A DNA stretch of 12,577 nt from the IMG/VR virus record IMGVR_UViG_2675903368_000004; one strand, 5' to 3'. The stretch comes from a virus. Its lineage: Duplodnaviria; Heunggongvirae; Uroviricota; Caudoviricetes. Shown one piece after another: positions 2,586 to 6,600 of this stretch; the stretch's first letter is position 1; every line of letters starts with the position of its first letter. The notes under the pieces were generated by a model. The model worked only from the letters and a program-made list of their open reading frames with translations, did not search any database and was not told the origin of the DNA. The translations under genes and the position numbers were made by a program.

Positions 2586-3284
2586 TTACTGCGAAAGTTT
2601 GTTAATGGAAAGGTAGCCGCCAAAATTGCCGACGTTATTGCGGAACTTGCAACCACTCAGGCATTTGCTGCACTTATCCTTCGTGATATCGGACGTTGGC
2701 TGGTCATATTCATCCGCGACAGCCGGGCCATCATAACCGCACTCATCGCCGCGGTAGATCCAGGTGCAGGTGTTGGCCAGCATGATGCGCCCCGGAAAAA
2801 CGGCACCATCCGTTTCCGTCGGTGTGGACAACACAAAGGAGGCACTGACCGCGCTCAGTTCGCTGCACTGCTCGATGCGCCAGCGGCTGATCACCTCCTG
2901 CTCCGGATCGGCGTCACTGTTTCCGTTGACGAAGTTCACCGCATCCAGAAAACGGGCGTAAACCTTACGCCTGACCACCGTTCCGCCGACCAGACTCTGC
3001 AGGTCTTCCGCCATCCCGGTGACCATGCCGTGCAGGTTAGAGACTTTCAGCGTTGGTCTTGCACTGGCTCCTTTGCCGTTCATCTCAAAGCCGCTTCCCT
3101 GAATAGGGTACGCCTGATACTGTCGCCCCTGCCAGGTGACCGACTCACCTTTTTCGTTCTGCTCATTACAGAAAAAATAACGTTCTCCGCCGACCTCTGT
3201 CAGATCGACTTCCCAGAGCACGATCAGCGCGGATTGCTCCGTTTTAGTGCACTCATTGAGTGTTTCCTGCTGTATATCCTGCAT
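2586..3284 (-). CDS. L: Minor tail protein L (tail tip; C-terminal Cys cluster)
   Basis: 232-aa ORF; MQDIQQETLNECTKTEQSALIVLWEVDLTEVGGERYFFCNEQNEKGE...KDKCSKCLSGCKFRNNVGNFGGYLSINKLSQ matches lambda gpL almost residue for residue by recollection; its ATG overlaps the M stop (TGATG). Confidence 0.92.
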   Translation of the reverse strand: MQDIQQETLNECTKTEQSALIVLWEVDLTEVGGERYFFCNEQNEKGESVTWQGRQYQAYPIQGSGFEMNGKGASARPTLKVSNLHGMVTGMAEDLQSLVGGTVVRRKVYARFLDAVNFVNGNSDADPEQEVISRWRIEQCSELSAVSASFVLSTPTETDGAVFPGRIMLANTCTWIYRGDECGYDGPAVADEYDQPTSDITKDKCSKCLSGCKFRNNVGNFGGYLSINKLSQ

Positions 3285-3625
3285 CAGTGAGTGACCTCTT
3301 CAAAGGTACAGTTAAAATCGGTATACATGGCATTATCCGAAATGCTCCACTCCCTGCAGACAACCCGGACAGTCCTGTTGTGTTTTGGCGGACGCCACAA
3401 AAAAGCACGAATCCCGGCATGACGGGATAAAAAACTGTCCAGCGCGGCACGGGAATATTCATCTGTGACACGAAATACCGGTTTAAACGTTTTCAGATCC
3501 GCATTCAGACCACCAGCCCGTCGCTGTTCATATCCGTCACCAAACTTTACCGTAATAACTGATGGCTTTCGTGTCGTCTCCATCCCCTCACGGGGGATCC
3601 AGTTAAAAACTTCAGGCTCAGGCAC
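3284..3625 (-). CDS. M: Minor tail protein M
   Basis: Alignable to lambda gpM (FNWIPREGMETTRKPSVITVKFGDGY vs lambda FRWKVKPGMDVASVPSVRKVRFGDGY; ...FLW.PP) but clearly diverged. Start chosen as GTG 3625 because GGAGG lies 8 nt upstream; ATG 3640 (no SD) is an alternative; the track's 3670 start is a TTG without support. Stop overlaps the L start. Confidence 0.75.
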   Translation of the reverse strand: MPEPEVFNWIPREGMETTRKPSVITVKFGDGYEQRRAGGLNADLKTFKPVFRVTDEYSRAALDSFLSRHAGIRAFLWRPPKHNRTVRVVCREWSISDNAMYTDFNCTFEEVTH

Positions 3626-6600
3626 TGTACAATCCTCCATCCCGACGCGATGACTGCATAATTGACACAACCCTGCTGTCGATCAGATCCACCAATCCCC
3701 TGGCTGAGCGCGCATCTATCTCGCCATTGCTCCCTTGATTCTGAATGCTGATGTGATACACGGGAGAATAAACAACCCCCCCGCCACTATTCACATTGCC
3801 AATGGCTCTGACCCCAAGAGAGCCGTCCGCTGCCCGTGTCAGTGGCATGATAGCTTCAGGCCCGGCCTCGCCCATCAGCCCGGCACCTTTCGCAAAAGCA
3901 AAATACGTCGGTGTATCCACAATAGTGTTACTGTAAGCACTCAGATTTGCCGATGTGTAAACACCACCTTTTGCGTTTGCCACCGCCCCCGAAATCCATC
4001 CGCCGACCGTACCAAGCCACCCTCCGGCACCGGAGAGTGACTTCAGTCCGTTAACAATGGCCGCATTCATCAGAATTTTTGAAACTTCCCGGAGAACTGA
4101 ACTCCCCCAGTTTCTCCAGTCCACAACATTTCCGGCCAGTGCATCGGAAATATTTGATACCAGTCCGTCCATAGTGGAAACGACAGCATCTGCCGCCTGC
4201 GAAGCATAATCGGTGGCACTGTCTGCCCAGTTGGTCAGCCCCTCCTGGAGTCCTGCATTCCAGTTATTACGTAAAGCATCGGCCTTTGCATAATAATCCT
4301 GCTGATCGCTGAGACGCTCTTCCAGATATTTTTTATTCAGTTCTTTCTCCTGTTTCCACAGGGCTTCTTCAATTTCTCCGGCCTGATACTGTCTCAGAAG
4401 CTCGTTATTTTTCTGCTCAAACTCATGCCGGATACTCCACATTTCCTGGAGTCGTTCACGCATCCGTGAGCCTTCACCATATCCCAGTAACTGCGCGTCG
4501 TCAGATGCCCGGGCACTGGCATTACTGTCCGCCAGGCTGCTTTCATACGCAGCAAGCTGCTCACGAATCTTTTTCTGGTCGATGAGTGCTGCATTCTGCA
4601 AAAGCGTTTTTTTCTGCGCTTCTGACAGGGTTGATAATTCGCCCTGACTGACCTGATATTTCATCTTAGCCAGTTCAGTATTCTGCCCTGCCAGTGCTAT
4701 TTGTTCTTTTTGCTGTTTAATCAGCCGTTTATAAATATCTTCTGTTTTTTCCGCTTCGGTCTTTTTATGCGCTTTGGGTTTATTTGCCTGGTTATTTCGC
4801 CAGGCATCCAGTGAGTTATTGATATAATTCTGTCTGGCTGTCTGATACGCCTCTCCCACAAAGCCGAGATCATCCGCAGCATAACCCAGGCGGGCACGCT
4901 CACGGGCTTCCCCCTTCAGGCGGGACAGAGCCAGTTCGCGCTCGCTGTTATTCAGTGCAGTCTGCTGTTTATCATCCAGGGTTGCCTGTGGTAGCCGTAA
5001 CGGTACATTCACCAGCCCCTGTCGCTGCTGAAGTAATTCATTACCGAGCCCGAGAAGGCGATTAAACTCGGTATGCTGCCCATTCATGATCAACAGGGAC
5101 TGATACGCTTTGTTTTGTTCCGCGGCCTGTTGACGGATCAACGCCACCCGTCGCTCCTCCAGCCCGGCAAGCACATCCTGAATGGATTGCGCTTTGCCCT
5201 GCATTTGTGTGAGACGGGACTGTTCAACTGCCAGTTGATTTGTTGCTTCTGCAAGCCCTTCTGTGACAGTTTTTACCGACGTCATGTGGTTAATCATAAA
5301 ACCGTTATCGGTTGTCCAGCCCGGGTTTGCCAGCACATACTGATAGCCAGCAATTTTTTCCTGTAAGGATTTAATCTTACTTTTCTGCTCGTCAATTAAC
5401 CTGTTTTGCTCATCAAGTGCCTGCCGCGTCTTTTCCTCATTATCTGACGCTTCAGGAAGCGACATTGCCGACGTTTTCTGGCGAATTTCGTCGATTGTTG
5501 CGGCATACTGGCGTGCAGATTCTCTGGCCTGCTCCTGATTCTGATACATCGTGTACCAGGCCGTCGCCCCCAGCATGACGAGTCCCGGCACACCACCAAC
5601 CAACCCCAGCGCACCACTTAACAGACGACTCCCCACTGACGTGACAGTATTCAGCGTTGTCTGTGCCGCTGTTCTGGCCGCAATATTACGGGTAAGTGAC
5701 GCCTGAGCAGCTGTCAGCTTCGCTTCTGCTGCGGCCTGCCTTTCGGTACCGCGAGCAGCAACAACCGCCTGTTGCGCACGATAAACCGCCGCACGCGCCC
5801 TGGCGGTTGCTATCTGTGTCCCCCGAAGTTGCGCTTCAGCAAGAGCCACTTCGTTTCTGGCTGCAGTAATTAATCCGGCAGTTGCAGATCCAGCAGAAGA
5901 CGCCATATTGCCAAAATATCGGGCTACCCCGACGGCAACCAGAGCACCGGCAGCGGTTGCCACGGTATCAATATTGCCTGCAAGACCATTCAGCACCCCG
6001 GAGAGCGTCTTCGTCACTCCGCTTGCCTCGTTCGCACCACCAACCCAGGCCATAAAGGCGTTTTCAACTTTGGTTGCAGAGGATGAAACCGTATCAGGCA
6101 TTGCTGCATATTCATCACGCAACGCCCCAAGCTGACTAATCAGTGCAGGAACAACCTTATCGGCGGTTAGTTTTCCGTTATCCGCCATGGCCTTCAGATC
6201 CTTACGGGCAACGCCCATTCCCGCAGCCAGCGCACGAATAACACGATCACCGCTCTCATTCACCGAGTTAAACTCTTCACCGCGCAGCACTCCCTGCGCC
6301 AGTGCCTGACTGAACTGCGTGATCACCGAACTGGCTTCTGCTGTACTGGCACCGGATAATTTCAGGCCCGTGGAGATCGCCTCGGTGACTTTCAGTACCT
6401 CCTCAGAACTGTAACCATACTCCCGCATGGAAGCTGCAGAACGGGCAAAAAGGCTGGCGTTATCAGAAAACGCCGTCCCCGTTCTCTGGCTGATCGCCAT
6501 TAATTCACGTTGTGATACCTGAAAATCATCACTGGACTGTGAGGCCTGCTTCAGACGGGCATTTACTGAATTCCACTCATCGGCGAGAGAAATAAGATGA

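Follow-up and report, generated by a model that had tools for sequence, protein, structure and literature searches.

Tail-gene mosaicism at the M/L boundary of a defective lambdoid E. coli prophage

The tail genes of the prophage described here raise the question whether they have diverged from phage lambda as one unit or whether tail modules of two lambdoid phages meet within them, and if so, where. The window, that is the whole stretch of DNA analyzed (12,577 nt, IMG/VR record IMGVR_UViG_2675903368_000004), is a defective, lambdoid E. coli prophage whose late genes are encoded on the minus strand. A sequence-only reading had proposed that lambda-like L, K, I and J genes are joined here to a diverged M gene and to upstream genes of other origin. 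The account that we favor, with a probability of about 85%, is that the interval holds an old, fixed recombination joint between two lambdoid tail modules.

Identity to lambda and HK97 along the window

Comparison with lambda (NC_001416) by blastn gave a single main alignment, in which window positions 1-3304 correspond to lambda 13409-16735 with 91.3% identity; the only other match covers 58 nt inside M (76%). The aligning part makes up 26% of the window, and the similarity to lambda in nucleotide sequence, across most of the genome, by which the genus Lambdavirus is recognized is not seen within the window. In sliding windows of 50-60 nt, identity was 92-100% from position 1 to approximately 3200, except for the middle of I and small dips (2701-2850 and 3051-3100), fell to 70-80% in 3201-3304 and was 50% or lower beyond. 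The features of the tail region are listed in Table 1.

Table 1. Coordinates of the tail genes and of the sequence elements around the joint
Feature	Position in window	Strand	Evidence or remark
J, tip attachment / central fibre, first 410 codons	1..1231	-	lambda-type; runs off the window
I, tail tip insertion/plug protein	1292..1939	-	Pfam Lambda_tail_I; 103-nt overlap with K, as in lambda
Middle of I, second mosaic patch, non-lambda allele of mEp460_ev081 type	1451..1800	-	nucleotide identity
K, JAB + NlpC/P60 tail assembly peptidase, full length, 247 aa	1837..2580	-	Pfam Prok-JAB, NLPC_P60
L, hub protein with Fe-S domain	2586..3284	-	Pfam Phage_tail_L; lambda-type from approximately codon 22 on
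Junction zone, 70-80% to lambda, between the >90% block and non-homologous M	3205..3304	-	sliding identity, maximum chi-square
Invariant 12-mer GTGCTCTGGGAA, L codons 22-25, candidate crossover anchor	3210..3221	-	alignment of 8 sequences
L codons 1-21, 'window-type' tile accompanying the window M allele	3222..3284	-	nucleotide identity and linkage
Invariant CTGATGCAGGA over M stop (TGA) / L start (ATG), 1-nt overlap	3277..3287	-	alignment
M, distal tail protein, non-lambda allele	3284..3625/3640	-	Pfam Phage_min_tail, E = 1e-31
Tape measure gene, non-lambda	3618..6844	-	Pfam Phage_HK97_TLTM, TMP_3, Tape_meas_lam_C

At the protein level, the near identity to lambda that had been stated for L, K and the N-terminus of J was confirmed, with 92.3% for L, 96.0% over 200 aa for K and 97.6% for J (410 aa; approximately 96.5% at the nucleotide level); I reaches 81.9%. 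Both ends of I are identical to lambda I, as had been claimed, and the middle is indeed divergent, but over a wider stretch (approximately aa 68-166) than the residues 95-160 originally given. This middle part is 56-76% identical to lambda in nucleotide sequence and 92-100% identical to mEp460_ev081 and the 2024CK-00475 prophage. M was found to be homologous to lambda M yet much more diverged, in agreement with the sequence-only reading (39-41% aa identity, 41.3% in the pairwise alignment), and the tape measure (23-28%), major tail (approximately 20-23%), capsid (approximately 18-20%) and chaperone (16%) proteins are not lambda-like, again as described there.

The order of the Pfam families, Phage_min_tail, Phage_tail_L, JAB+NlpC/P60, Lambda_tail_I and the gpJ N-terminal domains (FNIII-A_GpJ and Phage-tail_3), is that of a lambda-type tail tip module. 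Cysteines of the CTW...DEC...KCSKCLSGC region of L are conserved in the pairwise alignment with lambda, and all four cysteines of the gpL [4Fe-4S] domain (lambda C173, C182, C205 and C212), the role of which has been described for lambda (PMC10721106), are present in the window L. The gene order H-M-L-K-I-J is as in lambda, whose own tail-tip module M-L-K-I-J (13100-18903) has the same 1-nt M/L and 103-nt K/I overlaps and proteins of identical Pfam families, L, K and the J N-terminus being 92-98% identical. It differs from the window in that M lacks nucleotide homology and the middle of I is another allele; the tape measure, chaperone, major tail and head genes of the two are unrelated at the DNA level. 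Two plus-strand open reading frames (3030-3290 and 3465-3653) lie antisense to well-supported genes and were discarded, since independent support for them was lacking.

Upstream of M, the window resembles phage HK97 (NC_002167), and judged by pairwise identities this likeness lies in the tail shaft, together with head closure and tape measure, and not in the head. Across gp7-gp16 of HK97, amino acid identities are 61% for Hc1, 80% for gp10, 50% for the tail terminator, 72% for the major tail protein, 62% for the chaperone and 52% for the tape measure (gp16), and nucleotide identity over window 5911-9442 is 65-76%. The HK97-type head that had been postulated holds at the family level, since the capsid belongs to Pfam Phage_capsid and the protease to Peptidase_S78, beside a portal gene, and the RefSeq names in the prophage of EC32 include 'HK97 family phage prohead protease' and 'P27 family' small terminase. 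It does not hold for HK97 itself, whose capsid (20%), protease (26%) and adaptor (22%) are not those of a close relative. For M, L, K and I, identity between HK97 and the window amounts to 30-34%.

M probably starts with the GTG at 3625, which has GGAGGA 7 nt upstream. PGAP places the start at the ATG at 3640, and position 3670 is only the end of the maximal open reading frame. HK97 was rejected as the source of M, their identity being 30%. The closest distinct relatives of this M (63-64% aa) are found in Stx-converting phages (Stx1_EH1992 and BP-4795, for instance), which are collinear with the window from the chaperones to J and have a tape-measure C-terminus that is 69% identical. Their nucleotide identity to the window is uniformly 56-88%, without a step at M/L, and this uniformly diverged long-tail module therefore serves as a non-mosaic control. 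Allele comparison indicates that the last 80-110 or so codons of the tape measure gene (approximately 3618-3950) share one cassette with M; against the SCU-482 prophage, the left edge of this cassette falls at approximately 3850-3950. The tape measure reading frame is broken in the window by a 1-nt deletion near 6654.

The joint at the M/L boundary

Identity to lambda drops in two steps. The stretch with 92-100% identity ends inside L at approximately 3205-3222 (L codons 21-27), 63-80 nt into the gene: dense mismatches stop at 3222 and are followed only by those at 3209, 3204 and 3189. The 70-80% flank then extends to 3304, and nucleotide homology ends altogether at 3288-3304, where M stops and L starts, including the final 20 nt of M. 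This places the boundary in or near M and the M/L overlap, where the sequence-only reading had put it; the abrupt change predicted for 3284-3625 is real, but sits at the lower edge of that interval and just below it (3205-3304) and not inside M. A maximum-chi-square test within L set the breakpoint at window 3222, directly after nt 63 of the gene, with 17 mismatches to lambda in 63 nt on one side and 50 in 636 nt on the other, a value reached by none of 2000 permutations. Stepwise profiles against lambda, mEp460, K56-43, 689R7 and SCU-482 all change at 3200-3300. The joint is located 0-80 nt from the M stop and L start, and synteny is kept across it.

L codons 1-21 are 73% identical to lambda in nucleotide sequence, compared with 92% for the remaining L, and 84-100% identical to Evi, REF1, GF60 and ampC_0069; they are tied to a window-type M in 61 of 61 cases. 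The adjoining 12-mer GTGCTCTGGGAA is identical in all eight aligned sequences, the Stx-phage type included, and all L alleles converge there. Judged by the start points of matches, CTGATGCAGGA is the usual module boundary in relatives: L matches in thousands of E. coli prophages begin at window 3287/3288, and those in lambda-like phages at 3288 or 3304. A Chi site was rejected as stimulator of the crossover; the single GCTGGTGG lies in M (3510-3517, minus strand), approximately 290 nt from the joint, and 86 of 200 shuffles contained at least one match. A search for promoters and terminators at the joint gave only consensus-level matches at chance rate. With these, and with M and L overlapping by 1 nt so that the joint has no intergenic space, a moron or transcription-unit boundary was likewise rejected.

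The favored reading builds on what is shown: where the joint lies, how well it is supported statistically, the shift in composition and the pairing of one L type with many M classes in other phages. Upstream in transcription, the backbone of low GC3 comprises the HK97-fold head, the HK97-like shaft and tape measure, its own M and L codons 1-21; downstream follows a lambda-type hub block of high GC3, running from approximately L codon 22 through K, I and J (92-98% to lambda). We infer that two co-resident lambdoid genomes crossed over by relaxed (homeologous) recombination in the conserved 5' part of L bounded by CTGATGCAGGA and GTGCTCTGGGAA, with a phage Rad52-like recombinase or host RecA as the likely catalyst, and that this event left the 70-80% flank behind. 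There is precedent for such a mechanism: Rad52-like recombinases, Red among them, act on diverged sequences (Martinsohn et al., 2008, PMC2327257), and approximately 30% of the mosaics with >90% identity in E. coli temperate phages have flanking 'HR traces' of intermediate identity (De Paepe et al., 2014, PMC3945230). The published lambdoid mosaics resemble the present case in that a >90% block stops abruptly near a gene boundary with a flank of intermediate identity, between E. coli phages, temperate or defective, whose synteny is conserved, and nothing essential differs. Tail genes are not singled out in the passages of the two studies that were consulted.

Survival of the hybrid may be explained by the joint coinciding with a structural interface, because gpM must presumably fit the tail tube and the tape-measure C-terminus while L, K, I and J form the hub. 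With one face the gpM hexamer is anchored on the gpV tube, and with the other it stacks electrostatically on the gpL-HDI/gpJ-HDII ring; gpL, gpI and the gpJ N-terminus together are the counterpart of the one hub protein that T5 has (PMC10721106). L, K, I and J would jointly build the hub and central fibre and would contact gpM only via the electrostatic ring.

In form, the flank fits the definition of a homologous recombination trace (PMC3945230), but its attribution is ambiguous. The first 63 nt of L are intrinsically less conserved, since Stx1 and lambda are 60% identical there and 76% in the rest of the gene, so that the flank could partly reflect ordinary faster divergence and the crossover could lie exactly at the M/L boundary. 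Because the L-J block is patchy, in the middle of I and at the two dips, more than one event must be superimposed.

A less likely but plausible explanation is that illegitimate recombination occurred at random positions, that selection for intact, compatible genes kept only the M/L joints (the 'novel joints' model of Hendrix), and that the flank reflects nothing more than conservation at the N-terminus of L. It would account for the L match starting at most 4 nt from the L start codon in most relatives and for at least six unrelated-looking M classes abutting the same L, and the intrinsic variability of L nt 1-63 agrees with it. HR traces are moreover absent from approximately 70% of the published lambdoid mosaics (PMC3945230), so illegitimate recombination followed by selection has to be considered. 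It fits poorly with a >90% tract that ends 63-80 nt inside L, exactly at the invariant GTGCTCTGGGAA, and with a flank whose identity is well above background; at the M stop and L start itself, CTGATGCAGGA offers 11 nt of invariant microhomology. It is unlikely that the functional module boundary is L codon 21/22, with L residues 1-21 as a co-evolving tile matched to M and GTGCTCTGGGAA as a recurrent crossover anchor for tip swaps. The complete linkage of window-type M and tile and the separate tile of mEp460 speak for such an arrangement; the coupling is not strict, because lambda-type tiles occur with five other M classes.

Composition, relatives and direction of transfer

Between the capsid gene and M, both included, GC3 is 0.47-0.51; it rises to 0.60-0.72 in the stretch that begins at L nt 64 and extends into J. 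In lambda and Stx1 phage it is uniformly high across M/L without a drop, and the lambda left arm (M, tape measure, major tail, capsid) has 0.65-0.69, like L-J of the window. On the recombination reading, this composition suggests that the tip block was imported into a low-GC backbone, and not the reverse. Parents and direction are judged from composition only, because an unrecombined parent, that is a window-type M with a full-length non-lambda L, was found neither in phages by distant blastn nor in E. coli genomes nor among the 80 best IMG/VR loci for L. GF60 and ampC_0069, the two most divergent carriers, were checked and had no non-lambda L, and every carrier of a window-type M that was searched already has the lambda-type L-J block. 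It is quite improbable that lambda and its relatives took L-J from a window-like lineage, or that a third source gave it to both, the window arrangement being ancestral. In favor of this view, the unrecombined parent is missing for either side and the L-J block is common to many backgrounds; against it, the GC3 of this block matches the lambda left arm and contrasts with the window backbone.

Across lambda, mEp460, 689R7, K56-43 and the window, L nt 64-699 show at least 91% identity. This single L type is found next to at least six M classes, between which identity is 39-63%. The SCU-482 prophage combines a Stx-type M with a lambda-type L start. Such pairings indicate that the M/L boundary is a recurrent module junction in lambdoid phages, not peculiar to the window. 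They also effectively refute the view that M, the tape measure and the upstream genes merely evolve much faster than L-K-I-J, without recombination, since discrete alleles reassort. M is indeed more diverged (46% aa) than L (77%) between lambda and Stx1, a uniformly diverged pair, but the contrast between window and lambda is far larger (M 41%, L 92%, J 98%). In addition, GC3 shifts by 0.15-0.2 at the joint of the window and not in lambda or Stx1, and the upstream tail shaft is 50-80% identical in amino acids to HK97 and 16-23% to lambda.

The same hybrid is carried by 871 of 5,426 complete E. coli genomes and by isolated phages. The EC32 prophage at the ydfJ (Qin) site (99.98% identity) and the independently isolated Escherichia phages vB_EcoS-640R1, PhiR49_2, vB_EcoS-689R5 and Evi are collinear with window 1-12462 (97-100% nt) and share its M allele, L N-terminal tile, lambda-type L-K-I-J block and joint; small patch differences occur in L, K and I. 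This distribution refutes the idea that the joint is a chimera of assembly or an artefact of sequencing, and nothing favors that idea except two defects that the window has in addition, an IS100-type end in the portal gene and the 1-nt tape measure deletion. The 115 nt without a match at the end of the window were rejected as a further mosaic joint, being the IS end. Uniform identity to one phage across the window had been named as evidence against a joint, and literally vB_EcoS-640R1 and PhiR49_2 provide it, with 97.5-98% identity along 99% of the window. What follows is only that the hybrid lineage is established; the joint relative to lambda remains.

Significance of the hybrid

The hybrid is an ordinary joint in an established lineage, and phenomenon, mechanism and this very hybrid are all already known from public data. 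The finding carries little weight beyond annotation and is a clean, well-delimited textbook case of lambdoid tail-gene mosaicism: the receptor-binding tip module L-K-I-J travels as one block from one shaft backbone to another, and gpM stays with the shaft. Its uses are in the prediction of host range from prophage sequences and in the choice of splice points for chimeric siphophage tails.

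Gene content of the window and its relation to lambda

The late-gene cluster of the window is located on the minus strand, and Pfam agrees with all gene assignments bearing on the joint, the identity break between the lambda-type L-K-I-J tip block and the non-lambda M and upstream genes. Comparison with lambda (NC_001416) by blastn yielded one alignment, window 1-3304 to lambda 13409-16735 (91.3%), and a sole additional match of 58 nt at 76% in M. The sequence-only reading had described L, K and the J N-terminus as near-identical to lambda, M as homologous but much more diverged, and the tape measure, chaperone, major tail and head genes as not lambda-like; the protein identities bear this out. 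Its HK97-type head holds at the family level (Phage_capsid, Peptidase_S78), but capsid and protease are only 20% and 26% identical to those of phage HK97. Gene I does have identical ends and a divergent middle; however, the latter extends over about residues 68-166 and not 95-160.

Genes (all on the minus strand, in order) and other features of the window, with Pfam domains and amino acid identity to lambda
Feature	Window position	Pfam or description	Identity to lambda
Portal (truncated)
S78 prohead protease		Peptidase_S78
HK97-fold capsid		Phage_capsid	18%
Connector proteins
Ig-domain major tail protein			23%
Two tail chaperones			16% (chaperone)
Tape measure	6638-6850, 3618-6635	Phage_HK97_TLTM, TMP_3, Tape_meas_lam_C	23-28%
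M		Phage_min_tail	41.3%
L		Phage_tail_L	92.3%
K		JAB + NlpC/P60	96.0%
I		Lambda_tail_I	81.9%
J (first 410 codons only)		FNIII-A_GpJ	97.6% (N-terminus)
IS100-type terminus	12463-12577	115 nt
Chi site	3510-3517	GCTGGTGG, minus strand
Identity profile, step 3	past 3304	<=50%, alignment noise
Identity profile, step 2	3201-3304	70-80%
Identity profile, step 1	up to ~3200	92-100%
Candidate anchor	3277-3287	CTGATGCAGGA, M stop and L start
Candidate anchor	3210-3221	GTGCTCTGGGAA, L codons 22-25
Dips within L	3051-3100, 2701-2850	66-90% to lambda-type L genes
Diverged middle of I	1451-1800		56-76% (nt)

The middle of I is 92-100% identical to the allele of mEp460_ev081 and some E. coli prophages. This stretch spans the gpI linker and hydrophobic part and is an independent small mosaic patch, its sequence already known from mEp460_ev081. 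Two short dips were seen in the interior of L, each common to a different subset of relatives, which suggests that the 'lambda-like' block contains additional small patches of gene conversion. At window 2440-2460 the lambda reference lacks one base (GAGGC-TATT, lambda ~14265) that is present in the window, mEp460 and an Stx1 phage. Because of this, K is annotated in lambda with 199 aa from a downstream ATG, whereas in the other three it comprises 247 aa, the N-terminal JAB domain being complete.

Relatives and mosaic composition

The E. coli EC32 prophage at the ydfJ (Qin) site is 99.98% identical to window 1-12462, and vB_EcoS-640R1 and PhiR49_2 show 97.5-98% identity across 99% of the window length. 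At least 80% of the window is present in 628 of 5,426 complete E. coli genomes. Compared to EC32, a 1-nt deletion at ~6654 splits the tape measure gene (1075 codons, minus strand) into two ORFs and represents a true inactivating frameshift or else a sequencing error; apart from this, the two sequences differ over 12.4 kb in a single substitution (5146). The last 115 nt have no match in related prophages and are 100% identical to the istB end of 'IS100kyp'. They constitute one end of an IS100-type element (IS21 family) that disrupts the portal gene, and not another phage joint. With the portal gene broken off at 12462, this prophage copy is defective.

Phage HK97 resembles the window in head closure (61%), gp10 (80%), tail terminator (50%), major tail (72%), chaperone (62%) and tape measure (52%), with 65-76% nucleotide identity over window 5911-9442, but its M, L, K and I reach 30-34% only. 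A further module boundary was observed at ~9440-9480, where the head-closure gene follows the capsid/adaptor genes: nucleotide similarity to HK97 begins at 9442, and several phages, among them vB_EcoM-606R7 and phi467, match the window solely from ~9480 downwards. Upstream of ~3850-3950, a position in the tape-measure C-terminus, the SCU-482 prophage matches the window at 91% identity or more; from there to the L start it has the Stx-phage allele (56-78%). This switch marks a second boundary, the left edge of an exchangeable cassette consisting of the tape-measure C-terminus, M and L codons 1-21. The M cassette was found in 871 of the 5,426 genomes. Such block-by-block differences in relatedness make the window a mosaic of at least four parts: the head, an HK97-like shaft with the tape measure, the M cassette (nearest distinct relatives Stx-phage tails, 63-69% aa), and the lambda-type tip block containing the mEp460-type I patch. 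In the E. coli ampC_0069 prophage (L012), a 'zinc ribbon domain-containing protein' gene (1154-1495) is added between tail chaperone and tape measure; the window lacks this gene, which resembles a moron insertion.

Position and origin of the joint

Sliding-window identity was determined against lambda, mEp460_ev081 and the prophages of K56-43, SCU-482 and 689R7. All five lambda-type tails showed a common two-step profile, and the abrupt change expected against lambda was seen at ~3200 and 3304. Mismatches to lambda are dense as far as 3222, with only 3209, 3204 and 3189 beyond, and a maximum-chi-square scan of L placed the breakpoint after L nt 63 (17/63 versus 50/636 mismatches, a value reached in 0 of 2000 permutations). 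Thus, the high-identity tract stops within L, at codons 21-27. Homology ceases altogether at the M stop / L start and the terminal 20 nt of M; the M interior shows no identity change. The recombination boundary previously placed in or near M and the M/L overlap is therefore real, was correctly interpreted, and can be refined to the interval from L codons 21-27 up to 3304. The former outer limit, 3670, marks a maximal ORF only; the most likely M start is GTG 3625, with GGAGGA seven bases ahead of it, whereas PGAP annotates ATG 3640.

L nt 1-63 is intrinsically less conserved (lambda/Stx1 60%, versus 76% for the remainder of L), so part of the intermediate flank may be ordinary divergence. The joint itself is a product of recombination and not of rate variation: the discordance between window and lambda (L 92%, M 41%, J 98%) is well above that of the uniformly diverged control pair lambda and Stx1 phage (L 77%, M 46%, J 80%). 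Third-position GC (GC3) is 0.47-0.51 in the window capsid, major tail, tape measure and M, and 0.60-0.72 in L nt 64-699, K, I and J. Lambda, in contrast, has values like the latter along its whole left arm, its own M and H included, and neither lambda nor the Stx1 phage has a GC3 step at M/L. This composition suggests that the tip block was imported into a low-GC backbone; no unrecombined parent that could confirm the import was found.

The window, lambda, mEp460, 689R7, K56-43, Evi, REF1, GF60 and ampC_0069 share L nt 64-699 at 91% identity or higher, whereas L nt 1-63 comes in four classes (window, lambda, mEp460 and Stx type). In 79 of the best 80 IMG/VR loci by similarity to the window's L, plus references, window-type M was paired with the window-type L start in 61/61 cases, and the lambda-type L start occurred with lambda-, 689R7-, L087-, mEp460- and Stx-type M. 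At the protein level, those M classes that were compared share 39-63% identity only. Alleles at M/L are thus discrete and reassort. In thousands of E. coli prophages, the match to L sets in four bases ahead of its start codon (window 3287/3288). Together, these data make the M/L boundary a heavily used module junction of lambdoid phages; the window's lineage is one of its products, with the joint shifted ~63 nt into L.

Proposed mechanism and structural context

Two strings flanking the variable L start, CTGATGCAGGA and GTGCTCTGGGAA, are invariant in 8/8 aligned alleles, Stx type included, and are plausible candidate crossover anchors. Martinsohn et al. (PMC2327257) and De Paepe et al. (PMC3945230) define a homologous recombination trace as an intermediate-identity flank beside a >90% block. 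They show that Red, like other Rad52-like recombinases, acts on diverged sequences to recombine lambdoid phages with resident prophages, and ~30% of such mosaics bear these traces. Homeologous recombination within the 5' end of L is therefore favoured as the event that would have made the joint; the main alternative is illegitimate recombination followed by selection. The single Chi site in M was discarded as a lead, its frequency equalling chance expectation. Promoter and terminator scans at the joint, which has zero intergenic space, gave chance-level matches only.

The lambda virion structure would explain why the joint persists. Hexameric gpM, the distal tail protein, docks on the gpV tube with its beta-sandwich, and on the opposite face its E-loops stack electrostatically on the gpL-HDI and gpJ-HDII ring; gpL, gpI and the gpJ N-terminus jointly are the counterpart of T5's single hub protein (PMC10721106). 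M would thus be expected to remain with tube and tape measure, and L-K-I-J to travel as a unit.

The joint is an ordinary case of a thoroughly documented phenomenon, and the window's hybrid is already known, an identical one being abundant in public genomes and isolated phages. The module boundary may lie at L codon 21/22 instead of the gene boundary, perhaps due to the L N-terminus co-adapting with M, which is only a mildly new angle.
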